A DNA stretch of 64,000 bases from Deltaproteobacteria bacterium (lineage in GTDB: Bacteria; Desulfobacterota; Binatia; Binatales; Binataceae): assembly GCA_003161515.1 (NCBI GenBank), contig PMOH01000316.1, positions 1,210 through 65,209 on the forward strand. The letters are read 5' to 3'. Under the pieces are notes generated by a model. The model was not told where the DNA came from, made no database searches, and was given only the letters and a program-made list of their open reading frames with translations. The position numbers and the translations under genes were made by a program. This document shows positions 189-63,795 of this stretch, one piece after another. Within the stretch, counting starts at the first letter, position 1. Every line of letters begins with the position of its first letter.

Positions 189-761
189 CTAGAGTCTAAT
201 CACGTTGCCCGATGGCGGCGGGAGCATCAGAGCGACCGCGCCCGCGAACCCGAGGGCTTTCTGACTCAGATCGAAAGTTGAGAAGCGCCCGTGTCCGATG
301 TGCGCCAGCTCGCGCATGAAGGCTTCCGCTTCGGGGTTCGCCTCGCCGATATAGAGCGTGTCGATAATGCCCGAGGTCTTGCGCGCGAGGCTCAAGGTGT
401 CCTCGGGATCGGCCACCGCGCCGTCTGACATGACGAGCGAATAGTCGGGCCTGCGAGTTACCAGAATGCGAAACGCGGTGCTCATGTGAGTGGTCCCGCC
501 GCTCCACAATTCGTCGGCTGATTTGAGTTCGCGAGCCGATGAATCGAATCCGATGATGCGGACCTTGCCGGAATATGGCGCGAGGGCCTGGCGCACGCAA
601 TCTTGACGGCGCATCCCACGTTCTGGCGTGGGTGATTCCATAGAGCCTGAGCAATCGGCGATTACCCAATCGCCACCGAGCGCGTCCGATAACACAAGCG
701 AATTGGCGTCACTGGATTGACGCGCGAGTCGTGAATTGTTCCTGAGAGTTAGGCTTGACAT
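189..761 (-). CDS. von Willebrand factor A (VWA) domain protein
   Basis: MIDAS-like DCSGSM, plus SGGTT and SDG motifs. A strong AGGAGA Shine-Dalgarno sits 9 nt upstream of the ATG at 761. The longer ORF runs to 878 but has no RBS. Confidence 0.5.
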   Translation of the reverse strand: MSSLTLRNNSRLARQSSDANSLVLSDALGGDWVIADCSGSMESPTPERGMRRQDCVRQALAPYSGKVRIIGFDSSARELKSADELWSGGTTHMSTAFRILVTRRPDYSLVMSDGAVADPEDTLSLARKTSGIIDTLYIGEANPEAEAFMRELAHIGHGRFSTFDLSQKALGFAGAVALMLPPPSGNVIRL

Positions 762-895
762 TGTGATTTCGATTCTCCTGATTCGGTTTGGGCGTTTTGT
801 CGTGACACAGAGTCTATATTGGAAAAAGCGTACCAAGCAGATTGTGCCGGCGCCGCATGGCATCCAAGATGCATACATACGGCGCCGGTTGCCCT

Positions 896-1279
896 TCAGG
901 AGTCTAGGAATCTTTGGGGCTTGTAGACTAGGTGACGTTGCGCGAGGGCAGCGACCAGAGACCGGAAAGCTAGGTCGGTGCGAAACCAGACTTGCGCGCC
1001 AGCAATCGGGCCAGCCGCGCGCAACGTGATTAGCGGTTCCTCGCGATGCTGACCTTTTGCGAAGCCTGAAAATTCAACGCGCGCAATCGAATCTCCTAAG
1101 TTGAGAGATAGTCCTGTGTAGGCGTCAAGTTGAGCCGACCATTCCGCATTGCACGGTGCTACTTGAAAGAGAACACCATGCGCGATCACTTTCAGCGCTA
1201 ATTCACTGGCAGTCATTTGAGTATGAAGACTCGCGCGAGCATCAGGACAGTTACAATCAAGGCAGACATCAGGAGGCAA
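896..1279 (-). CDS. hypothetical protein
   Basis: ORF of 127 aa in the same orientation as its neighbours. No recognisable motif. Confidence 0.3.
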   Translation of the reverse strand: MPPDVCLDCNCPDARASLHTQMTASELALKVIAHGVLFQVAPCNAEWSAQLDAYTGLSLNLGDSIARVEFSGFAKGQHREEPLITLRAAGPIAGAQVWFRTDLAFRSLVAALAQRHLVYKPQRFLDS

Positions 1280-1467
1280 AAGATTGTTGCGGCCTGTCCG
1301 TTCAATCCCATAGTCTCTTGATGGTCCAGAATCGCGCGATCGCTTGCGCTTAATTCACCGCGCAAGTCGTGCGAATGATAGCAAGGCCAGCATGTGAGCA
1401 AACCCTTGCCCTTGCGTCCGTTGCAGAACGGGCAGACTAGTGAATTTCGAATGAGCGGATAATCCAT
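1213..1467 (-). CDS. hypothetical small Cys/His-rich protein
   Basis: 84-aa ORF with a CPFCNGRKGKGLLTCWPCYHSH cluster, which could bind zinc. It overlaps the downstream ORF. Confidence 0.25.
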   Translation of the reverse strand: MDYPLIRNSLVCPFCNGRKGKGLLTCWPCYHSHDLRGELSASDRAILDHQETMGLNGQAATIFCLLMSALIVTVLMLARVFILK

Positions 1468-1589
1468 GATTCAATTCTCCCTGAATGAAAGTTTCGGGCA
1501 GACACATCAATAGAGAACGCGCGAGCTATTCCCGCGCGTCTCTATCGATAGTGTTTCGTCTCATTTCAGAGACTCATCAGTGCTTTTCG

Positions 1590-2264
1590 TTATGCGACTT
1601 TGTGTCCGTAAGCGTATCCGTTCCCATTCGCGCGCATGGTGTTCCAAGCGCGTTTGGCAGCATGCGAGCGACACGCGCACGTTACCGCGTCACCATTGCA
1701 AGATGACTGAGAGGCAGACTTGCGCGCGCTACTCTTAGATGACGCACGGTCAGACATTCCAGAATCCTTCCGCGCATTCTGATATTCCGCGCGGGCCCAC
1801 TGTGATGCGCGTTCTGACTGTTCCATCTTCTCGCGCAAGGCATCGAGTTTCGCGCTAGCGGCCTCGCGCGCGGCCTTCTCAGTAGCTTTCCGCAGTGCAT
1901 CCTGTTTTGCAGCGTCGGCGGCCTCTTGGGCTCGCTTTGCACGTTCTGCACGGACCTTTTCTTGCGCGGCCTTCTCCGCGGCCTTCACATCCGGAGCAAA
2001 TGCACGGTCGATTAGTTCAGCATCGACTAGCAGATACTTATCTGCGAGCGATTGCGCGAGTTTGACCGCGGACACCATTTCATCCTGAGTACATCCGTTC
2101 TCTATGGTCTTACGGCGCAAGTAAATGACCTTTTCGATTTTCGAGCATCGAGGACAGTTACGGTCAAACTTCCCTAGTTGAAACATGGTCGCGCAACCGG
2201 CTTTGTGATCCAGCGTGCTCCCTGCATTCGTTCCCGTGTCTGATTGATTCGTTGAAGTATCCAT
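1590..2264 (-). CDS. hypothetical coiled-coil protein (Ala/Lys/Glu-rich)
   Basis: 224-aa ORF. It has an N-terminal CxxC pair and a long AEKAAQEKVRAERAKRAQE-type coiled-coil segment. Confidence 0.4.
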   Translation of the reverse strand: MDTSTNQSDTGTNAGSTLDHKAGCATMFQLGKFDRNCPRCSKIEKVIYLRRKTIENGCTQDEMVSAVKLAQSLADKYLLVDAELIDRAFAPDVKAAEKAAQEKVRAERAKRAQEAADAAKQDALRKATEKAAREAASAKLDALREKMEQSERASQWARAEYQNARKDSGMSDRASSKSSARKSASQSSCNGDAVTCACRSHAAKRAWNTMRANGNGYAYGHKVA

Positions 2265-3057
2265 TTGATTCGTTCTCCTGTAGGCAATTTAGGCAGACAC
2301 TATCGATTGAGTTTTCAATCGTCGCTCGCATCTCACTGCAAGTGTTCCGTCTCGCCGGAGAATCAAGTCTTAGTTGATTTACTCTCTGTCCGAGCAAACA
2401 TGGTTATCGGTAATGTTCAAACTACAGACTAGTGCGTAATTTGTCAAGCGACAATCTGCATTTATTTCGTTCTCTGTATGATTATCGAACGTATATAAGG
2501 CATATTTCTTTTTAATCAGTGCGTAGCATGTACATAGGGACTAGTCCGCAGTGCGCTACAGGCGCGATGTGAGCCCCTTCCCTTACTCTCTTACTATGAT
2601 CTCTCTTGTATCATCACAGATGCTTCATATGGGTATGATGCTATGAGATAGAGTTTCTATGCTCTTTCCTGTACGCACTAGTCGCCACGATAGAACGGAT
2701 TCGCATCCCTCGATACATAGAGCACATCTTGCGTTATTTTGTCGCTTCAAGGCCTAATTCAGTACTATCATGCCCGTAGCATTGTATTGAGAATACAACG
2801 TCACGCTTTCGGGATTGTCCTTTGTTTCATTGATGTTTATGCCGATTACTCCATTGCCGGGTGGGTGCCCTCGGCCAATGGCGTTTCCGTGCGGGCAGCG
2901 GCGTCCCCGCGTAACTGGGGTAAAATTTAGGGAAATTGGGAAGGAATTGCGAAAACCGGGAGGAGAAATTACAGAAAAATAATTACAGAATTTTGGAGAA
3001 CGTGGAATCCGGGGCTTGTTCTAAGGGTGGACGGGGGAGTAATTAGTTTTTCGTACC
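2265..3057. promoter_or_regulatory. AT-rich divergent intergenic control region
   Basis: About 800 bp without a credible ORF and with visibly lower GC than the rest of the window. It lies between the minus-strand block (ends 2264) and the plus-strand block (starts 3058). It contains direct repeats AATTACAGAA x2 and GGAAATTGGGAAGGAATTG-type GGAA/ATT iterations near 2929-2990. Confidence 0.4.
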
Positions 3058-4485: not shown

Positions 4486-5163
4486 ATGGACGGATTGACG
4501 GAAGGGCGCATTGTTCACCTCGCACGGCCGAACGAAGTCAAAGACCACTGCCTGGCGGCGATCGTTACTCGAGTGTTCGAACCGGGATTTGGACGTCCGG
4601 TGGGCTTCGACTCGCTGGGACGCGCGATCGATGCGCAGGGACGCCTGGTGCAGTTCGACTCAGCCGGCGTACCGCTGGCGCCTGGCTCGGCGGTGCCGGT
4701 TCTTCATCCCGCGCGCCAAGTCATGCCGAACGCGCCAGCCGCGGTCACGGATGACGACGCAGACTCGATTCGATTGCGTGTGCGTGATGGAGCCCCCGTC
4801 GACGAGCGCGTGATGGTTAATCTGCATGTGTTCAAAGACGGCGCGCAGCAATTCGTGACCGGCGGCGGTATCCAGCAGACGCTTCATGTGCGCGGCGTTT
4901 TCGAGGCTCCCGAAGGCGAGCTCCTGGAAAATACCTTCCACGATCCGCGCAACTGCCCGCGCCTGCACCCCGAGGTGATCGCCGAAAAAGCGGCCGCCAA
5001 AGAGCGCGACCGGCTCGCCAGGGAAAATCAGACCGACGACGAAGCGCGGCGGATTCGTGAGCTTCACGAGAGCGGCGAAGTCCAAGCCGGGCAGGCCGAA
5101 CAGGTCAAACTCGTCGGACAGGCCGACAATTCCGAGCGGAGCACCTTCGGGGAGCAGCATTAA
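4486..5163 (+). CDS. hypothetical protein
   Basis: 225-aa ORF with a coherent codon pattern. No recognisable motifs. Confidence 0.35.
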   Translation: MDGLTEGRIVHLARPNEVKDHCLAAIVTRVFEPGFGRPVGFDSLGRAIDAQGRLVQFDSAGVPLAPGSAVPVLHPARQVMPNAPAAVTDDDADSIRLRVRDGAPVDERVMVNLHVFKDGAQQFVTGGGIQQTLHVRGVFEAPEGELLENTFHDPRNCPRLHPEVIAEKAAAKERDRLARENQTDDEARRIRELHESGEVQAGQAEQVKLVGQADNSERSTFGEQH

Positions 5164-6290: not shown

Positions 6291-6465
6291 GGCGAGTCGC
6301 GCTTATCGCGTTCTGGTTCCTCTACACAGTCGGCGGCGTCCCCGATAAGGCCGGTCCCTTCGCTTCTCCGATCCGCTGCCAGCATTTTATGGAAGCATTT
6401 CTCGCCAACGACCCAACTTACCAGATACTTGTTACCAAACTTCGTTTCTCGGACGGAGAGACAAA

Positions 6466-7113: not shown

Positions 7114-7623
7114 ATGATCATTGACATCGGCGACGCCATCGTGGTGCTCGGAGATTCCGCGCTAAGTTGGGCCATCAGCAAAATTACCGGGCCAGTTTCT
7201 CATATTGGCTTAGTAACGAAGGTTGTGCCGGTCGTCGAGGTCACGCAGGCGCTCGGCGACGGCATCAAGACTCTCACGCTGCCCGAGACGATGGCGACCG
7301 CGCGCTACGGCTACTGTCTGCACGACAACCTCTTCCCGCTGGCCGATCGCCAAAAAATGGTCGCTTGGGGCTTGAAGCAACTCGGAACTCCGTACGCATT
7401 TGCGGATCTGGCGCTCGAGGCCATCGACGCGCTCACCGGAAGCGAGAAGGCCAGCATTTTCTTCGATCAAGACGGCGCCGATATTTGCAGCCAGTATTTT
7501 TCGCTCGCGGCGATCCAAGTCGGGCGGTCTTGCGGTATCACGCCGCGCAAGGCGACTCCCTCGGACTGGCTTCATTATTCTCTGGCACAGACGAGCTGGT
7601 CGACGCAGCCGATCGCGAAGTAA
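7114..7623 (+). CDS. possible permuted papain-fold (YiiX/NlpC-P60-like) hydrolase
   Basis: 169 aa. The layout resembles the YiiX/DUF830 family (SHIGLV ... C..H). This is weak, by-eye similarity only. Confidence 0.3.
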   Translation: MIIDIGDAIVVLGDSALSWAISKITGPVSHIGLVTKVVPVVEVTQALGDGIKTLTLPETMATARYGYCLHDNLFPLADRQKMVAWGLKQLGTPYAFADLALEAIDALTGSEKASIFFDQDGADICSQYFSLAAIQVGRSCGITPRKATPSDWLHYSLAQTSWSTQPIAK

Positions 7624-7633
7624 GGGAAAGCGG

Positions 7634-8920
7634 ATGAAGATCGTGTTCGTGACGACCTGTAAGAATCGTGCCGCCCATCTGGCCAGAACGCTGCCGAAGA
7701 ACTTGGAGGACAATCCTCGATCGACGTTCCTGGTTCTGGACTATGGCAGCCAAGATGATTTGACATCTGTGCTGATGCCTTACCGGGACTTCAAGTACGG
7801 ACGGCTAGTTGTCTATCATTATCCGACCGACGGACCGTTCCGCATGGCCCACGCGAAAAACATGGCGCACCGGCTCGGAATCTTGGAAGGCGCCGACGTC
7901 TTGGTAAACCTCGACGCGGATAACTACCTCGGCGCCGGGTTCGAAGACTTTGTCGCGGAGAGATTTGAGAGCGACACGTTTCTCTGGTCCGGGCTGGTGC
8001 AGGGTCTCGGCCGCAAAATGCGGGGGGTCAGCGGCCGGATCGCGGTGACGCCGCAGGCGTTTCTCAAAGCCGGCGGTTACGATGAGAAGAAGTACGACAC
8101 TTGGGGGCCTGACGATAAGGATTTCAATGCCCGACTCTGTCACTTGGGCTACCGGCCCGTCCAGATCGATCGAAACTATCTGGCGGCGATCCCGCATGGC
8201 GATGGCGTGCGTTTTAAGGAGTACCCCGAGGCGCGTGAGAACGCGTTAGGAGAAGAGGCGGAACTGCCGCCGCCGGAGACCGCGGTCGCCAACTTTGGAA
8301 AGTTTGGCATGGGCGAGGTTCTCGGGCCCGGTGGCGCCCTGCAACTCGGCCCGATACCGACGCGCATCTTCGGAATCGGGTTGCACAAGACCGCGACCAG
8401 CTCGCTGCACGCCGCTCTTCAAATCCTGGGTTACGAGAGCGCTCACTGGGAGTCGGGGGCTTGGGCCAAAAGCGTCTGGGATGAAGTGCGCGCGGGAGGG
8501 ATTGCTCCGACCTTGGAGAAGTTTTATGCGGCGTCGGACCTGCCGATTAGCATTCTCTACAAAGAGCTGGATCGCGCGTATCCGGGATCGAAGTTCATCC
8601 TGACGATTCGGAATGAAGCCGAATGGCTGCGCAGCGTGCGCGATCACTTTTCGTACAAGAATCCGTTTCGGTGGGAATGGGACGTCTACCCGTTCAGCAA
8701 CGTGATCCATCAGGCGATTTACGGGCGCAAGACCTTCGACTACCACACCTTCCGGGCGCGCTATCGTTGGCACAACGCGGAAGTGATCGAGCATTTCAAG
8801 AATCGGCCCGATGATTTACTGGTGATGCGCACGCCGGCGTGGACAGATCTCTGCCGGTTTCTCGGAAACCCGGTTCCGAGCGTCGACTACCCGAGAAAAT
8901 TCGTAACTAACGGAGGATAA
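7634..8920 (+). CDS. bifunctional GT-A glycosyltransferase / sulfotransferase fusion protein
   Basis: ATG at 7634 with a GGGAAAG RBS. The N-terminal half has a beta4GalT/GT2-like GT-A fold with LVLDYGSQDD and a DAD metal motif. The C-terminal half has the sulfotransferase 5'-PSB P-loop GLHKTATSS and 3'-PB-like RNEAEWLRS. Confidence 0.5.
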   Translation: MKIVFVTTCKNRAAHLARTLPKNLEDNPRSTFLVLDYGSQDDLTSVLMPYRDFKYGRLVVYHYPTDGPFRMAHAKNMAHRLGILEGADVLVNLDADNYLGAGFEDFVAERFESDTFLWSGLVQGLGRKMRGVSGRIAVTPQAFLKAGGYDEKKYDTWGPDDKDFNARLCHLGYRPVQIDRNYLAAIPHGDGVRFKEYPEARENALGEEAELPPPETAVANFGKFGMGEVLGPGGALQLGPIPTRIFGIGLHKTATSSLHAALQILGYESAHWESGAWAKSVWDEVRAGGIAPTLEKFYAASDLPISILYKELDRAYPGSKFILTIRNEAEWLRSVRDHFSYKNPFRWEWDVYPFSNVIHQAIYGRKTFDYHTFRARYRWHNAEVIEHFKNRPDDLLVMRTPAWTDLCRFLGNPVPSVDYPRKFVTNGG

Positions 8921-56028: not shown

Positions 56029-56420
56029 TGGCCGAGGCTGACCACAGACTGCTGGCGACGCTGGCCTACCCTGAGTACAAGCCGGGGCAGATGTGCGAAG
56101 ATGTTATGGCTGCCCATCGGCACGAGCCTGTCATCTGCATGAAGCACAATAAGTCTTATCCCCACGAAATCCCGCCGCCTCCCGTAGACACCTATGAGGC
56201 GATGGGGCGGATCATCGCGGCGCTGTTCAAGCGGGGCCTCTACCTAAGCCCTAGTCGTCGTCATTTCCCGGTCTGGACCGGTGTCTGTCTCATGCAAATG
56301 GATAATGACTACCCAGAAGAGCCTGTATTGATCGTGCAGAAATCAATCACCAATTCCACTGACTTCATCGCCGCCGTCTGCGAGGCCGCGTTGCAGGTAC
56401 GGCGCAAGGAGCAGGTATGA
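56025..56420 (+). CDS. hypothetical protein
   Basis: 131 aa, ATGA-coupled. Confidence 0.35.
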   Translation: MMAEADHRLLATLAYPEYKPGQMCEDVMAAHRHEPVICMKHNKSYPHEIPPPPVDTYEAMGRIIAALFKRGLYLSPSRRHFPVWTGVCLMQMDNDYPEEPVLIVQKSITNSTDFIAAVCEAALQVRRKEQV

Positions 56421-56638
56421 ATAGTCATCACCCAAAAGGTTTACGATATACGATGACGATCCTACGGAGCGACGGCACCTACTGGGTCAAGGAGCATGTC
56501 AAACACGTTATCATCAAGCCGGGGTTCGTCGTGGTCTACGAGGGCGAGCATGGCGTGGATCGTGTGCAATCGTGGATACCGAACGAGAGGATCGATCACT
56601 TTACTCTCGAAGAGGAACGCAAGGAACAAAGTAAATGA
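56417..56638 (+). CDS. hypothetical protein
   Basis: 73 aa. Confidence 0.35.
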   Translation: MNSHHPKGLRYTMTILRSDGTYWVKEHVKHVIIKPGFVVVYEGEHGVDRVQSWIPNERIDHFTLEEERKEQSK

Positions 56639-57138
56639 GCGATTACACGAAAGACTTGATTGTAGAAGCTCGTGCTACCTGTGTCCGTGAGCATTCTAAG
56701 GAACCTCACCCCTGTCTGGAGCGGGCGTTGGCACTAGCCCTCGAAGCTGAGTCCGCGAAGGTGAAACGAGTGGAAGCGCTGCAAAAGCAAATGCACGATT
56801 GGAATGCCACCTCTGTAGGCGTCGTTTGGGTACGCGGTTTAGTAGATGTTTGCCTCGCCCCACCGAACAGCGGCGAGCAGGCAATGAGGTGTGAAGTCCT
56901 ACGCGGTTGTGTCGGAGATACAGGTCATTTCGGCGAGCACACGTTCGGGCCATCCACCCCTCCCGCACCCACTGAGGCCGCGACGCGGGAGCACCTAATC
57001 AAGAAAATCAATGCTATTGTCGATCCGTTCTTGTATCTACGGAATATCGACAATACGCGACCTATGGGCACCGGCTCTTGGGAACAGGTGGTCGTAGACT
57101 TAGCCGACGCCATCATCGCAGTAGCGAGGGCCAAATGA
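56635..57138 (+). CDS. hypothetical protein
   Basis: 167 aa. Confidence 0.35.
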   Translation: MSDYTKDLIVEARATCVREHSKEPHPCLERALALALEAESAKVKRVEALQKQMHDWNATSVGVVWVRGLVDVCLAPPNSGEQAMRCEVLRGCVGDTGHFGEHTFGPSTPPAPTEAATREHLIKKINAIVDPFLYLRNIDNTRPMGTGSWEQVVVDLADAIIAVARAK

Positions 57139-57410
57139 GCCAGCTCCGCCGCGAAAGTCGAGAGGACGGTTTCAAGCCTTTCGAGCCTAAGCCCCTTCCC
57201 TCGTCGGCAGTTTTAGCCGCCGTCCGCATAGCTGGTGGCCCCGACAAAGTCGCTGAACTCCTAGGAGTACATCGAAGTCAGGTTTACCGATGGATAAGGG
57301 CGCGGACTATGGCGCGGGCGCGTTATCAGTACGTTGAGACGCTGGCGGATTTGTCCGGCGTCGATATGCGCCTACTAGGCGTGAAAGGCTTGACATCCGC
57401 GCGCGACTGA
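57135..57410 (+). CDS. Cro/YdaS-like HTH DNA-binding protein
   Basis: AGGPDKVAELLGVHRSQVYRWI matches the YdaS/Cro HTH pattern. The ATGA overlap at 57135 couples it to the upstream gene. Confidence 0.45.
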   Translation: MSQLRRESREDGFKPFEPKPLPSSAVLAAVRIAGGPDKVAELLGVHRSQVYRWIRARTMARARYQYVETLADLSGVDMRLLGVKGLTSARD

Positions 57411-59315: not shown

Positions 59316-59341
59316 TTCCGAAGGGAGCCCGAGTTTCGAAA

Positions 59342-59364
59342 GGGAATTATTGATTTGAGTCCCT
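59342..59364 (+). repeat. TIR (left, cassette A)
   Basis: GGGAATTATTGATTTGAGTCCCT. Confidence 0.85.
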
Positions 59365-59371
59365 TATTACG

Positions 59372-60025
59372 ATGAAGCCGTATTTTGAAGAGGCGGGGAT
59401 TACGATTTTTCACGGTGACTGCCGCGAAGTGCTCGGAATGTATTCGGGCTTTATCGTTACCGACCCGCCTTACGGTATCGACCATCCGACCGACTATAGG
59501 GCGCGGGGGCGGGGTGCGTTGGCTGAGTGTGCTGATTATCCGCGCGTGGCTGGCGATGCCGAGCCTTTTGAGCCGTCTTTCTTGCTTGACCGACCCTGCG
59601 TGCTATTCGGAGCCAATTACTTCGCTGACAGGCTGCCGCCGTCGTCGGGCTGGCTAGTCTGGGACAAGATGCGCCCACATGGCCTCGACCAAGCGACTGC
59701 GGAACTGGCGTGGTCGAATTTCGTCAAGGGTGTTCGGGTGTTTCGCTATCTCTGGAACGGCATGATCAGGGATGGCAACGAGGCATTAGAGCACCCGACA
59801 CAGAAGCCGGTCGCGCTAATGAAATGGATTCTGGCGCTGAAATGGACGCCTGCGGGGCGGGTAATTGACCCCTTTATGGGCGCAGGCTCGACCCTAATCG
59901 CGGCGAAAGACATGGGGCGCGAGGCTGTCGGCATCGAACTCGAAGAACGGTATTGCGAAATTGCGGCACGGCGATTGAGCCAGTCAGCGATGCAATTCGG
60001 GACGCAAAATGAATCAAGGGACTAA
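59372..60025 (+). CDS. beta-class amino-DNA methyltransferase (N6-adenine or N4-cytosine)
   Basis: Motif IV TDPPYG near the N-terminus and motif I (FMGAGSTLIAAKDMGR) near the C-terminus. This circular permutation defines beta-class N6A/N4C MTases. Confidence 0.7.
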   Translation: MKPYFEEAGITIFHGDCREVLGMYSGFIVTDPPYGIDHPTDYRARGRGALAECADYPRVAGDAEPFEPSFLLDRPCVLFGANYFADRLPPSSGWLVWDKMRPHGLDQATAELAWSNFVKGVRVFRYLWNGMIRDGNEALEHPTQKPVALMKWILALKWTPAGRVIDPFMGAGSTLIAAKDMGREAVGIELEERYCEIAARRLSQSAMQFGTQNESRD

Positions 60026-60218
60026 ACTATATAATTCCCTTTCGAAAGCGGTTGGGGAGTACGACCGCCTGGTCACCGAGATGGTGGGCGTTTCCAATGT
60101 CTTAGTGCGACGCGGCGGCACCTCACGCAAGAATCTGTGGCGGGAAGAATCCCCCGAAGAGGCGATGAAGCGGTTCGGGCAGCCAGCGCCGACGAATCCG
60201 CTGCATGTGAACCGATGA
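60009..60218 (+). CDS. hypothetical small protein (N-terminus encoded by TIR; start doubtful)
   Basis: 69-aa ORF. Its first roughly 13 codons lie in the right TIR and TSD of cassette A. Confidence 0.25.
   Translation: MNQGTKLYNSLSKAVGEYDRLVTEMVGVSNVLVRRGGTSRKNLWREESPEEAMKRFGQPAPTNPLHVNR
60017..60039 (-). repeat. TIR (right, cassette A, degenerate)
   Basis: The reverse complement reads GGGAATTATATAGTTTAGTCCCT. Ends are conserved and the centre has diverged. Confidence 0.6.
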
Positions 60219-60448
60219 CTCTACCTGTCGACCCGAGAGTCCGGCGCTTGGAACCGGAAGTGGTTTCGCCGGAGACCGAACGCGAAGCGCTCCACGTTCG
60301 TTTCCAATTCGACACAATCTACGAACATGGCTGCGGCCTAGCTCTCGGCATCGGTCACATCGAGAGCAGCGACCACAGCTATGCCGTAACGATGCGGCGA
60401 CTAGCCGACGGACGTGTCGAGGTTCTGCACGTCCGGGAGATGCGGTAA
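60215..60448 (+). CDS. hypothetical small protein
   Basis: 77 aa from the ATG at 60215. ATGA overlap upstream and TAATG overlap downstream. Confidence 0.3.
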   Translation: MTLPVDPRVRRLEPEVVSPETEREALHVRFQFDTIYEHGCGLALGIGHIESSDHSYAVTMRRLADGRVEVLHVREMR

Positions 60449-60777
60449 TGGCAATTCGAATCCAGCGGAAGCGCACGCGTGGTTGGAAAGCTCCTGAAGG
60501 CGCTGTCTACGTCGGGCGTCCGACCGAATGGGGGAATCCTTGGACGGTTGGGCTCGTGGCCTGCGGCTGTCGCTCAGCAGGCGAATGCGATCACAATTGC
60601 TTTCGCGTCGAAACCGCCGAAGAGGCCGTCGATATGTACCGTCGGTGGGCGTCCGGTTGGAGCGATGAGAAAAAGCAGCGTTGTCGAGATCAATTGAGTG
60701 GAAAAGATCAGATGGACTGGTGTTCACTCGACAAGCCCTGCCACGCGGACGTGACGTTGGAGATCGCGAACGCATGA
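60448..60777 (+). CDS. DUF4326-family protein
   Basis: RKRTRGWKAPEGAVYVGRPTEWGNPW is the characteristic DUF4326 N-terminal signature. Confidence 0.5.
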   Translation: MAIRIQRKRTRGWKAPEGAVYVGRPTEWGNPWTVGLVACGCRSAGECDHNCFRVETAEEAVDMYRRWASGWSDEKKQRCRDQLSGKDQMDWCSLDKPCHADVTLEIANA

Positions 60778-61355
60778 GAGTCCTGCTAACCCAGAGCGAG
60801 CGCCTGAACTTCTTCGTCGCCAAGCTGACGTATTGGGACCTCACGTTCGAGCCTCGAGGCCTCGCCAGCGTCGAACTCTGTCTCTGCGAAGAGACCGAGA
60901 AAAGAGACCACCGCCTCCGCCGGTCGGCCGGCATGAAACACCTGGCCGAGTGCCCCGCCACGGATAGCGAAATGGAATTCATCGAGCCGCTTTGGGCCCG
61001 ATGCTGCGCGATCGCCATCGTCGGCCGCATCGGATTCATCAAGCACGCGCCGAAGCCTTGGCGAGTCTATTTCCGCGACCTGCTCGATCAGCGCGAGCCG
61101 CGCGCGGCCGCCCTCGAGGACGGCAGGATGCGGATGCTCGCCGTGGGCGCCCGGCTGCAGGGAATCAACGCGAAGTACAACGAGAAAGAGGCGCTGGTGT
61201 TCATGCTCAAGATCGTCGCGACGATCGCGCGCGCCGGCGGCCGCGAAGAGATTCGGGAATTCCTCAACGGGAATCCGGTTCCCGCGTCGATCCGATCGCT
61301 GGGCTACAGAACCATTGTCGACGATCTCTTGCGCGCAATGGAGTTGCCGTCGTGA
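60774..61355 (+). CDS. hypothetical protein
   Basis: 193 aa from the ATG at 60774 (ATGA-coupled). The ORF extends upstream to 60681. Confidence 0.35.
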   Translation: MRVLLTQSERLNFFVAKLTYWDLTFEPRGLASVELCLCEETEKRDHRLRRSAGMKHLAECPATDSEMEFIEPLWARCCAIAIVGRIGFIKHAPKPWRVYFRDLLDQREPRAAALEDGRMRMLAVGARLQGINAKYNEKEALVFMLKIVATIARAGGREEIREFLNGNPVPASIRSLGYRTIVDDLLRAMELPS

Positions 61356-61362
61356 AAGTAAG

Positions 61363-61385
61363 GGGAATTATTGATTTGAGTCCCT
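61363..61385 (+). repeat. TIR (left, cassette B)
   Basis: GGGAATTATTGATTTGAGTCCCT. Confidence 0.85.
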
Positions 61386-61394
61386 CGCCGCACA

Positions 61395-61862
61395 ATGCAA
61401 ATCCGTAGAGCACAACCATGCGAAACGCGAAAACTAAAAGACTGGATCGCAGCGAATCACTACCTGCAATCCGCTCCTCCGGGATTTGTGCATCTCTACG
61501 AGTTCATCGAGGGCAAGGAATTGATCGGCGGGATGATTTTGGGCCGCCCATCCGCGAAGCAATACAACCCCGACAAAATCCTCCAACTTCACCGCGTCTT
61601 TTTCATCGACGATACCGCCCCGAATGTCGAGAGTCAGGGACTTTCCATGATGCGCCGCATGGTTCGGGTTTGGATACCGCAGATTCGCGGTCTCTTGTCC
61701 TATTCCGATCCAAGCATCGGCCACGAAGGGACGATTTACGAGGCCGATATGTGGTGTCCGCTCGGCCTGACCGACGAACACTGGGGCTACGGGTGGAAAA
61801 GCCGCGAAGGACGGCGCGATCAACGGGTCAGTCGCAAGATGCGATGGTTTAGAACGCCATGA
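61395..61862 (+). CDS. hypothetical protein (cargo of cassette B)
   Basis: 155 aa with a hydrophobic-core-like pattern (IAANHYLQSAPPGFVHLYEF ... GGMILGRP). No motif I can assign. The stop overlaps the next start (ATGA). Confidence 0.4.
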   Translation: MQIRRAQPCETRKLKDWIAANHYLQSAPPGFVHLYEFIEGKELIGGMILGRPSAKQYNPDKILQLHRVFFIDDTAPNVESQGLSMMRRMVRVWIPQIRGLLSYSDPSIGHEGTIYEADMWCPLGLTDEHWGYGWKSREGRRDQRVSRKMRWFRTP

Positions 61863-62215
61863 AGGGACTCAAATCAATAATTCCCAAAGTAAGTCTCGGC
61901 GGCGAGAGCGGCAACAAGTACGGCGCGCGCAAGACAAGCTGCGGGAAGCACATCCATGATTCCAATCGCGAAGCTCAACGATGTGCAGAACTGCGGCTCA
62001 TGGAGAAGGGCCGCTTGATCGCTGATTTGATATTCCAGCCAGCGTTTCCCATGTGGTACGGCGACAACCTGATCTGCACTTACGTCGCTGATTTTATGTA
62101 CCACGAGGAAGATGAACTCGTTGTCGAAGACGTGAAGGGTAAAGCCACAGATAGTTACATTATCAAGCGCAAAATGCTCAAGGCATTTTATGGAATCACG
62201 GTGAGGGAGACTTGA
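61859..62215 (+). CDS. DUF1064-family protein (restriction-endonuclease-like fold)
   Basis: NKYGARKTSCGKHIHDSNREAQR ... YVADFMY ... VEDVKGKATDSYIIKRKMLKAFYG matches the DUF1064 pattern. The first 9 codons (MKGLKSIIP) are encoded by the right TIR of cassette B. Confidence 0.5.
   Translation: MKGLKSIIPKVSLGGESGNKYGARKTSCGKHIHDSNREAQRCAELRLMEKGRLIADLIFQPAFPMWYGDNLICTYVADFMYHEEDELVVEDVKGKATDSYIIKRKMLKAFYGITVRET
61863..61885 (-). repeat. TIR (right, cassette B)
   Basis: AGGGACTCAAATCAATAATTCCC, a perfect inverted copy. Confidence 0.85.
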
Positions 62216-62856
62216 ACGTCAGAGATCGCATAATCGGCTTTAGTCGGGTCAGGGCTTCTGAACTTAAGGCCAATCCTTCCAATCCGAGGCAGCACGATGA
62301 GCGCGAGCGCGAGGTCTTTGGCGACCTACTCTCACGGATCGGGTTTGCCGGAGCACTTCTCGCATATCGCAACGCCGACGGCGAACTCGAGCTGGTAGAT
62401 GGCGCGCTACGCAAGGATCTGATGGAGGACCAAGAAGTCCCCGTGCTCGAGACTGACCTGACTCCCGACGAAGCGCGCGAGCTTCTGCTGTTCTTCGATC
62501 GCGTCGCCGGGATGGCGACCTACAATCCGGAGATCACGCTCGAGCTGGTCGAGCGTCTCAACCTGAACGGCGACGCGGCCGCGCTCGCGCACCTCGCCGA
62601 TGAGATGGAGGCGGAGGCGCAGATCGAGAGCATGTCCTCGGAAGCCAATCCGGAGACCGCGGGCGGTACGTCGCAACCAGGTGGTCGGAAGAAGCGCGGC
62701 GAGGATACGGGACCCACGCCGATCAAGGCTGTGATTTCAGTTTTCGAGCTCCAGATAGTGGAACGTGCGCTCAGTGCGACCCAAGAAAAAAATCGCGGGA
62801 CCGCACTCAGCATCATCTGCCAAGCATTTCTCAATTCGATAGGAGAGACGAATTGA
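62212..62856 (+). CDS. ParB-like nuclease domain protein
   Basis: ParB N-terminal domain box (LKANPSNPRQH ... ELVDGALR), then an acidic helical C-terminus. Confidence 0.55.
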   Translation: MNVRDRIIGFSRVRASELKANPSNPRQHDEREREVFGDLLSRIGFAGALLAYRNADGELELVDGALRKDLMEDQEVPVLETDLTPDEARELLLFFDRVAGMATYNPEITLELVERLNLNGDAAALAHLADEMEAEAQIESMSSEANPETAGGTSQPGGRKKRGEDTGPTPIKAVISVFELQIVERALSATQEKNRGTALSIICQAFLNSIGETN

Positions 62857-63053
62857 AAACTCTACGTCCAAAGAAAAAACCAATCTGGGGGATGCTTATC
62901 TATCGCACTACCAGCAAAGGCGTAGACCACATGCCGGAGATCCTGAATCAGATGACCGCCCAAGAGGCTCGGCAAGCGAAGGTCTGCATGGCGGGCGGCA
63001 ACACGATGGTCGTGTTCTACCCGATGCTCAAGAAAGGGGAATTATTGATTTGA
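62853..63053 (+). CDS. hypothetical small protein
   Basis: 66 aa. Its last codons run into the left TIR of cassette C. Confidence 0.3.
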   Translation: MKTLRPKKKPIWGMLIYRTTSKGVDHMPEILNQMTAQEARQAKVCMAGGNTMVVFYPMLKKGELLI

Positions 63054-63059
63054 GTCCCT
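63037..63059 (+). repeat. TIR (left, cassette C)
   Basis: GGGAATTATTGATTTGAGTCCCT. Confidence 0.85.
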
Positions 63060-63076
63060 CAATCAAAAACTCTCTC

Positions 63077-63757
63077 GTTTGGTTAGACCTTTGCTCCGGC
63101 CTAGGTGGCGCGAGTCAGCCGGCGTTGGATCGCGGTTGGAGGGTTATCAGAATCGACCTTGACTCTCGCTTCAGGCCCGACATCGTGGCCGACGTTCGCG
63201 CGCTGCCGCTCAAGGGCTATTGGGAATCTAGGGCGCTCCGCATCGATGTGCTGTGGGCGAGTCCGCCTTGCCAGGATTTTAGCAAACACGGACTGCGTTG
63301 CTTCTATCCGAATCCGCCGGAGCCGGATTTATCAATCGCTAACGCCGTCGGGGCGTTGATCAACCGACTTCAACCGCGTTTCTGGGTGATTGAGAACGTG
63401 TGGGCGGCTCGTCCGTGGTTCACGAAGCTGTTCGGTCAGGTACGCGCCAAGCCGCCAGGCCACGCGCTGTGGTCCAACCTCGCATTCCTGCTTCCGAACA
63501 TCGAGCCGCACAAGAGTTCCAGCGTCCAACTTAAGTCGAGAGGCATCGGAGCGATTCCAGGAAAACCAGGCGATTGGCGCAAGACCTATCGAGGCCTTAG
63601 AGAGAGGCATGCCACCGGAATAAGACCCGTCAAAGCTACGCCGGGGCGCTGGATGGGCAGTCACCACGATATGACGCCAGCGGAAGCAGCCGTAATTCCC
63701 TATCCGATCGGTGAGGCCATCTGCGCAGCGGTGGAGCGAAGGGACTCAAATCAATAA
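63077..63757 (+). CDS. DNA cytosine-5 methyltransferase-like protein (short)
   Basis: Motif I (DLCSGLGG), motif IV (SPPCQDFS, the catalytic Pro-Cys) and motif VI (ENV). It is only about 227-235 aa with no clear motifs IX/X or target-recognition domain. Start is ambiguous (TTG at 63050 inside the TIR, or TTG at 63077). The stop TAA lies inside the right TIR. Confidence 0.5.
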   Translation, partial: VWLDLCSGLGGASQPALDRGWRVIRIDLDSRFRPDIVADVRALPLKGYWESRALRIDVLWASPPCQDFSKHGLRCFYPNPPEPDLSIANAVGALINRLQPRFWVIENVWAARPWFTKLFGQVRAKPPGHALWSNLAFLLPNIEPHKSSSVQLKSRGIGAIPGKPGDWRKTYRGLRERHATGIRPVKATPGRWMGSHHDMTPAEAAVIPYPIGEAICAAVERRDSNQ

Positions 63758-63762
63758 TTCCC
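63740..63762 (-). repeat. TIR (right, cassette C)
   Basis: AGGGACTCAAATCAATAATTCCC. Confidence 0.85.
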
Positions 63763-63795
63763 CAAGAAAGGGGTCAGGTACGAGGGGAGAGAAAA

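Follow-up and report, generated by a model that had tools for sequence, protein, structure and literature searches.

Probable IS1595-derived mobile insertion cassettes carrying genes of DNA-modification families in a temperate phage genome

The stretch of DNA analysed here (the window, 64 kb of contig PMOH01000316.1 in assembly GCA_003161515.1) belongs to a contractile-tailed temperate phage, and within 4.4 kb of it three genes are each enclosed by an inverted pair of the same 23-bp sequence. What are these three units, and how did they come to lie there? We conclude that the units, designated cassettes A, B and C, are very probably mobile insertion cassettes (MICs), that is, non-autonomous derivatives of the IS1595 family of insertion sequences (IS) made up of 23-bp terminal inverted repeats (TIRs) and one passenger gene. 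The exact 23-mer GGGAATTATTGATTTGAGTCCCT was found five times in the window (Table 1), while the expected count from 100 shuffles of the window was 0. A first interpretation of this DNA, made from its letters only and called the sequence-only reading below, had proposed MICs and had counted six occurrences of the 23-mer. The six sites and their arrangement as inverted pairs hold; five copies are exact and the sixth, the right end of cassette A, is GGGAATTATATAGTTTAGTCCCT, with 4 mismatches to the canonical 23-mer. Beyond these six, no TIR copy at up to 5 mismatches was present anywhere in the window. As that reading had also described, a single open reading frame (ORF) fills each of the three elements (A, 59342-60039, 698 bp; B, 61363-61885, 523 bp; C, 63037-63762, 726 bp), and each pair is bracketed by a perfect 8-bp direct repeat with a different 8-mer for every pair. 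Three independent 8-mer matches would be expected by chance with a probability of about (4^-8)^3, roughly 4e-15. The cassettes resemble one another only over their terminal 23-25 bp.

The same ends were found on transposase-bearing elements. Scans for the TIR returned copies in 4 viral-contig stretches, 2 genome contigs and 13 metagenome contigs (denoted here by L numbers), the genome contigs coming from metagenome-assembled genomes (MAGs) within Acidobacteriota, of Terriglobales and Candidatus Acidiferrales. Elements of 1.57-1.79 kb that combine these TIRs with a 306-313-aa transposase were present in L005/L009, L013/L014, L015 and L001/L007. The transposase matched PF12762 (DDE_Tnp_IS1595; 5e-44, 4e-41 and 2e-43), the zinc ribbon PF12760 (4e-8 to 4e-9, above the gathering score) and NF033547, 'IS1595 family transposase' (207 bits against a cutoff of 75). 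IS1595 elements usually generate 8-bp duplications and encode a two-domain transposase, with a zinc ribbon in all groups except IS1016 (PMC8101967). On their predicted transposase domains and the 8-bp duplications of L005/L009 and L013, the full-length partners L005, L013, L015 and L001 are assigned to IS1595, one of the candidate families that the sequence-only reading had listed for an IS with this TIR and this duplication length. The transposase-bearing L005, L009 and L015 elements have the variant GGGAATTATATAGTTTAGTCCCT as their left end, identical at every base, which marks the right TIR of cassette A as a naturally occurring end variant and not the result of decay.

No transposase was detected inside the window, in agreement with the sequence-only reading: a tblastn search with the cognate transposase gave a best match of E=2.7, and Pfam identified no transposase family in 60 ORFs of at least 95 aa from 1-58.5 kb or in the main ORFs of 58.9-63.8 kb. 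The only recombinase in the window is a generic Pfam phage integrase (Phage_integrase + Int_N). Because the TIRs are common with an IS1595 element and the window holds no transposase, the cassettes were presumably mobilised in trans, with an enzyme that could be supplied by a full-length copy in the host Terriglobales chromosome, in a co-resident prophage (as with L001) or in an unseen part of the phage. An origin in the phage itself, outside the window and not in the host chromosome, seems to us rather improbable. A contig of 75,625 bp is recorded as encoding proteins of the window, which puts at least 11 kb of the genome outside the window, the viral contig L001/L007 bears a full-length copy, and the close relatives L024 and L025 end in a fragment of an IS1595-type transposase. 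However, none is encoded within the window, no 23-bp TIR copy at up to 5 mismatches accompanies the L024/L025 fragment, and a chromosomal copy with an intact duplication is present in the Terriglobales MAG. A phage-encoded enzyme would change only the source of the transposase and would leave the nature of the cassettes unaffected.

Evidence of movement came from relatives of the phage. Removal of cassette A and one repeat in silico yields an intact 66-aa ORF beginning MIPKGARVSKAVGEYD, and the protein P0005, located directly after the DnaA_C gene in three contigs, has the predicted N-terminus and junction and differs only in three C-terminal residues. Contigs L024, L025 and L026 match the flanks of site A at 98.5% and 98.3% identity with a single TTTCGAAA. 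These empty-site contigs were reached via an exact-protein route, outside the viral-contig collection; in that collection the empty-site junctions for A and for C, and the right flank of C alone, were unmatched, relatives of the phage being absent there. Site B is empty in L020 and L021, which match its flanks at 100% and 99.9% identity, hold a single AAAGTAAG and keep the native 110-aa DUF1064 gene intact. Cassettes were also found at other sites. Cassette C in L017 is identical at 727/727 positions and lies between two copies of ATTTTATG, and its flanks there correspond to window positions 7625-6383 and 6392-5268 at 100% and 98.8% identity. Since ATTTTATG occurs only once at this place in the window (Table 1), the window itself provides the empty counterpart to an insertion that C made by transposition in a sister genome. 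Cassette B is present in L019 (524/524 identical, duplication CAAAATAG), as a cassette of the same size with an identical Mom protein in L023 (duplication AAATTAAG), and as a partial copy with yet another flank in L008, giving at least three other sites. Sites with a single 8-mer, which the sequence-only reading had anticipated, were recovered for A and B and not for C, and its expectation of cassettes elsewhere was borne out by the identical B and C copies with other duplications. The two patterns it had named as pointing the other way, 23-mers fixed in position everywhere and 8-mers lying within a longer motif, were not seen.

The copies at other sites bear directly on a rival origin, in which a full-length IS1595 element inserted separately at each cassette site, afterwards lost its transposase and left the cassette behind in situ, with no movement as a transposase-less unit. 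Internal deletion of the transposase does occur, as seen in L006, an intermediate in which an element copy has lost 527 bp of this gene, and full-length copies bear variable passenger ORFs. Nevertheless we judge such an origin very unlikely. B (523 bp) and C (726 bp) are found at two to four sites at constant length and with their own 8-bp duplications, the copies in L019 (B) and L017 (C) are 100% identical, and of the full-length element the cassettes have kept only the TIRs, with nothing of its leader, its transposase or its 3' small ORF. Same-length, identical copies with their own duplications indicate that B and C transposed after they had reached their present form.

We give still less credence to an artefact of metagenome assembly in which repeat-induced chimeras were joined at the 23-mer. 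A chimera formed at a repeat would make no perfect 8-bp duplications of unique flanks and would leave no empty sites that restore ORFs exactly, and the pattern recurs in assemblies from different pipelines, although many contigs do break at the TIR (L008, L010, L012, L016 and L018) and L022 combines one L019-site flank with a different second flank. Least tenable of all is a conserved phage regulatory signal (operator, promoter or terminator) bracketing genes, for which the identity of the TIR copies, their position at gene boundaries and the shared orientation of the cargos and the phage operon could be cited, but which is refuted by near-identical phages that lack the whole cassette and keep one 8-mer and by the same sequence ending IS1595 transposase-bearing elements in a bacterial chromosome, with identical cassettes at unrelated sites and different 8-bp duplications also standing against it.

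Several observations weigh against an assignment of the cassettes to the MICs. Among 14 complete elements catalogued, 5 have no matching 8-bp repeats (L001/L007, L002/L003, L006, L015 and L014), representing four distinct elements or insertions plus L014. L014 is a further full-length copy that has one flank in common with L013 and not the other, and such cases suggest that the mismatched flanks arose by recombination between copies or by adjacent deletion. No empty site for cassette C was found at 63029-63036: the only relative that covers the region, L020, is otherwise 99.9% identical and diverges abruptly from the window at 63014 (L020 ~1402), 22 bp upstream of site C, and was dropped as an empty site for C on account of this mosaic breakpoint. 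The empty-site assemblies (Logan SRR6960539, ENA ERZ27248477 and JGI 3300014501) may share the same or related samples and so may not be independent of one another. Cargo C is far shorter than typical C5 methyltransferases, and known models match it in its N-terminal half only. Lastly, the cassettes match the full-length element only over their 23-25-bp ends; because nothing more is in common, they are not simple deletion derivatives.

With these points taken into account, a MIC remains by far the best description. The units have the TIRs of a cognate IS, no internal transposase, a gene unrelated to transposition, 8-bp duplications and traces of past mobility. Other classes were considered and rejected. 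One class, the MITEs (miniature inverted-repeat transposable elements), comprises short and non-coding sequences, whereas the elements of the window are 523-726 bp long and, outside the two 23-bp TIRs, coding except for 0-9 nt. A composite transposon does not fit, the cargo being flanked by 23-bp TIRs alone with no IS bodies, and neither does an integron gene cassette. The latter would have an attC site, an integron integrase or attI platform and no target duplication, whereas the elements have perfect TIRs and variable 8-bp duplications at unrelated sites.

In the mechanism that we propose, an IS1595-type zinc-ribbon DDE transposase would bind both TIRs, the cassette would enter an 8-bp target rich in A+T, and the 8 bp would be duplicated as the staggered cuts are repaired. 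The duplications at 9 independent sites are 81% A+T as compared to 41% in the window (P about 1e-11), and no common motif was found among the 9 apart from AT-richness. A G at duplication position 8 in 7 of the 9 sites was examined as a target consensus; it is not mirrored at position 1 and was treated as not significant.

Table 1. Coordinates of the cassettes, their repeats and cargos, affected ORFs and related elements
Feature	Sequence	Coordinates	Strand	Remarks
Target-site duplication A, left	window	59334..59341	.	TTTCGAAA; single copy in L024, L025, L026
Cassette A left TIR	window	59342..59364	+	canonical 23-mer, exact
Cargo A, 217-aa predicted beta-class N6/N4 DNA methyltransferase	window	59372..60025	+	PF01555 6e-20; phrog_67 4e-39
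Chimeric 69-aa ORF	window	60009..60218	+	ATG in cassette A, in frame through right TIR into rest of 66-aa gene
Cassette A right TIR	window	60017..60039	-	variant GGGAATTATATAGTTTAGTCCCT
Target-site duplication A, right	window	60040..60047	.	TTTCGAAA
Target-site duplication B, left	window	61355..61362	.	AAAGTAAG; single copy in L020, L021
Cassette B left TIR	window	61363..61385	+	exact 23-mer
Cargo B, 155-aa predicted Mom-family DNA-modification protein	window	61395..61862	+	PF25680 8e-16; phrog_1384 3e-25
DUF1064 gene with cassette-derived start	window	61859..62215	+	118 aa = 8-aa extension + complete native 110 aa
Cassette B right TIR	window	61863..61885	-	exact 23-mer
Target-site duplication B, right	window	61886..61893	.	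AAAGTAAG
Target-site duplication C, left	window	63029..63036	.	CAAGAAAG
Cassette C left TIR	window	63037..63059	+	exact 23-mer; holds TTG opening cargo ORF
Cargo C, 235-aa short C5-cytosine-methyltransferase-like protein	window	63050..63757	+	PF00145 4e-6; phrog_363 2e-13
Cassette C right TIR	window	63740..63762	-	exact 23-mer
Target-site duplication C, right	window	63763..63770	.	CAAGAAAG
Unoccupied target	window	6384..6391	.	ATTTTATG, single copy in window; holds cassette C in L017
472-bp cassette	L004 (also L003, L011)	618-1028		136-aa ORF without family match; duplication ATTTGAAG
1081-bp cassette	L002-L004 contig			347-aa predicted C5 methyltransferase; without matching duplication
Full-length element	L005	355-1995		Terriglobales MAG, adjoins aldo/keto reductase gene; duplication AAAATTTT; L009 same locus
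Full-length element	L013	412-2020		duplication ATTAATAG
Full-length element	L015	148-1719		without matching 8-bp repeats
Full-length element	L001 (L001/L007)	1126-2912		50-kb viral contig; without matching 8-bp repeats
Element with deleted transposase	L006	1578-2733		527-bp internal deletion in transposase; without matching 8-bp repeats

By their domain matches all three cargos of the window belong to DNA-modification families (Table 1). The sequence-only reading had named DNA methyltransferases in two of the cassettes and had left the gene of cassette B as an unknown; the families of A and C stand, and the gene of B is instead a predicted member of the Mom family, so that all three cargos would be DNA-modifying. 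Cargo A has DPPY ahead of FxGxG, and in cargo C motifs I (DLCSGLGG), IV (PPCQ) and VI (ENV) were recognised by eye. Cargos A and C both end at a TAA within the right TIR, and the TGA of cargo B directly abuts it. Two more cassettes with the same TIRs are borne by a 58-kb viral contig (L002-L004), with L003 and L011 as further contigs that hold them. Over the five distinct cassettes, 4/5 cargos are predicted DNA-modification enzymes, the cargo stop lies within or directly against the right TIR in 5/5, and just 0-15 nt are neither TIR nor coding. Given the accompanying cargos, the 136-aa cargo of the 472-bp cassette may be a new counter-defence gene. Six of the cargo or passenger ORFs had no match in Pfam and PHROGs.

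A homolog of cargo C was found in a setting without TIRs. It encodes 259 aa (L006 4557-5336, minus strand) and is an ordinary operon gene in a prophage-like region of the Acidiferrales MAG. The similarity extends from LVWLDLCSG to ICAAVERR and reaches right up to the TIRs of the cassette, as in a precise capture of the gene. A terminase small subunit gene lies near this homolog, which has SVCT in place of the catalytic PPCQ of cassette C.

The cassettes are without the promoter-like leader of the full-length element, and we therefore propose that the cargos are probably expressed by read-through from phage operons. The three cargos of the window are co-oriented with the phage operon. Co-orientation with flanking genes fails as a rule, since the L019/L022 site has its cargo and a 945-aa ORF in convergent orientation. 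Translation of the interrupted downstream gene would be restored in A and B, where a reading frame that opens at an ATG at the right end continues across the TIR. For B this ATG (61859) overlaps the Mom stop (ATGA), and the insertion of C swaps only the last residues of a 70-aa ORF. As the flanking genes keep their reading frames (A and B) or lose only their last residues (C), the three insertions were probably close to neutral for them. The cargos themselves most likely shield the DNA of the phage from host restriction, and such an anti-restriction benefit would explain the tolerance of three insertions in a setting where IS are normally purged.

The reading frames of the TIRs and the near lack of other non-coding DNA in the cassettes lend themselves to a more ambitious interpretation. 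At the left TIR incoming translation meets a stop in two frames and a TTG start in the third; the right TIR supplies the stop in one frame and leaves the remaining two open, so that an ATG at the cassette edge could re-initiate the interrupted gene. The IS1595 ends could then be adapted to drop a single counter-defence gene into a phage operon without polar damage, forming a cassette system and not IS debris. The platform that recruits new cargos would be the full-length element, in which a promoter-like leader precedes a passenger slot open to free exchange, and a host-encoded transposase would be the unwitting distributor of anti-restriction genes among infecting phages. We think it unlikely that this stronger form is correct. 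The near-neutrality of the insertions may reflect either a designed feature or survivorship among many insertions.

The full-length element is built, from left to right, of the left TIR, a conserved leader of ~35 nt, a passenger ORF, the transposase and a basic 44-aa ORF. The leader contains a promoter-like TTGACA-17 nt-TATATT. The passenger ORF (78-159 aa) is unrelated in each of the five copies L005, L013, L015, L001 and L006 and matched no Pfam or PHROG family, which suggests that its position is an exchangeable slot. In the first ~50 nt of the same copies a hairpin was observed in which AGTCCC of the inner left TIR pairs with GGGACT of the leader and the TTGACA -35-like box lies in the loop; in L001 the TIR variant GAGTGCTC is met by a compensating GAGCACTC. 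This hairpin may be a regulatory structure of the IS. The last ~140 nt of the five copies encode the basic ORF of 43-44 aa (MK..LDAVADRVL.YRPKPKSE..KKR.RK......RDSNQ*), which overlaps the stop codon of the transposase and ends at a TAA within the right TIR.

MICs have been described before, as the IS231-derived MIC231 of the Bacillus cereus group (De Palmenaer et al. 2004, via PMC3129680) and as the qnrD MICs of Proteeae plasmids (Guillard et al. 2014, via PMC9229222). As far as these secondary accounts describe them, they share with the cassettes studied here the ends of a cognate IS around an unrelated gene, the lack of a transposase, a family-typical duplication and an enzyme presumed to act in trans. 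The present cassettes differ from MIC231 in their parent, IS1595 in place of IS231, and from both in lying in a phage genome and not in a chromosome or plasmid, in their DNA-modification cargos and in their extreme packing, with TIRs that supply start or stop codons. IS1595 elements with passenger genes are likewise known, as 'transporter IS' (Siguier, Gagnevin & Chandler 2009, via PMC3129680 and PMC8101967). Going by those summaries, the full-length L005, L013, L015 and L001 elements resemble transporter IS in their zinc ribbon and DDE_Tnp_IS1595 domains, 8-bp duplications and extra passenger ORF; they place the passenger upstream of the transposase behind a conserved leader and add the conserved 44-aa ORF, whereas the elements of the window have no transposase at all.

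Restriction-modification units with inverted repeats (65 or 26 bp) and 8-bp duplications have been reported in Xanthomonas oryzae and Neisseria gonorrhoeae (Furuta, Abe & Kobayashi 2010, PMC2853133). Both those units and our cassettes have methyltransferase genes within TIRs, an 8-bp duplication and an empty site in a related genome. The reported units are whole restriction-modification systems in chromosomes, with repeats unique to the unit, no cognate IS and no multi-site copies; our cassettes, in contrast, carry solitary modification genes in a phage, have an identified cognate IS and occur as the same cassette at several sites. MITEs are common to prokaryotes and viruses and are non-autonomous and dependent on a helper transposase (PMC11602168). 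Those MITEs are non-coding and mostly intergenic, whereas the elements of the window each carry a complete gene and are inserted in coding sequence. Full-text literature searches returned no description of MICs with DNA-modification genes in phage genomes. The claim of the sequence-only reading that methyltransferase-carrying MICs were undescribed in phages can accordingly be kept for the combination of a single-gene MIC, a DNA-modification cargo and a phage, and not for its parts, as MICs and IS1595 passenger genes are both established. The mycobacteriophage mobile elements (MPMEs) are very small elements of about 440 bp with short imperfect repeats that are polymorphic among close phages and carry their own small putative transposase ORF. 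MPMEs are not known to carry cargo genes or to be related to IS1595.

The way the cassettes transpose is ordinary; their setting and form are unusual and biologically suggestive. Phage genomes are reported to be poor in IS, with about one IS per 346 kb and strong counter-selection of insertions (PMC3429520), whereas here three insertions within 4.4 kb of one phage have each added a gene of a DNA-modification family. The comparison at population level indicates recent movement of the cassettes and points to a testable route for shuffling counter-defence genes among phages, in which small cassettes would borrow the IS1595 transposase of a host or prophage. One 23-bp end, a candidate transposase and several natural cargos make up a defined experimental system in Acidobacteriota, a major soil phylum. 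Searches for TIR pairs in viral metagenomes can reveal further accessory genes, such as the 136-aa cargo in L004, some of which may be new counter-defence factors.

The window encodes a tail sheath, a large terminase subunit, a major head protein, baseplate J, a GH108 lysin and a tyrosine integrase. The cassettes sit in a block of replication and modification genes, among DnaA_C-like, DUF4326, DUF1064 and other genes. The cassette region is contained in none of 50,697 deposited phage records, of which only three, all metagenomic fragments, encode an IS1595-type transposase. The sole similarity to deposited phages is a match of 83-87 nt inside the DUF4326 gene to hypothetical genes of actinophages and has no bearing on the cassettes. 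In exact protein look-ups the DnaA_C-like, DUF4326, cargo A and cargo C proteins were not on record, probably because other start codons had been called.

Some minor features were recorded in the window and its relatives. The transposase fragments at the contig ends of L025 (4543-4662) and L024 (~4560-4680, minus strand) are the C-terminus of a different IS1595-type transposase, and the lineage of the window phage may hold a second IS1595-family element. At the point where L020 diverges, an 81-aa ORF is present, and the window is predicted to have a 70-aa ORF there once the cassette is excised. The ORFs of window 1-30200 include Pfam matches to Sulfotransfer_4 (2e-32) and Glyco_transf_7C (5e-5) upstream of the terminase, an unusual accessory gene; the batch output names no ORF, and by eye the probable carrier is a 506-aa ORF at 7400-8920. 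Window positions 56063-57336 (1274 bp, closely downstream of the integrase gene and spanning three to four small ORFs) are missing from L024-L026, a difference that involves no TIRs and looks like an ordinary difference between mosaic modules.

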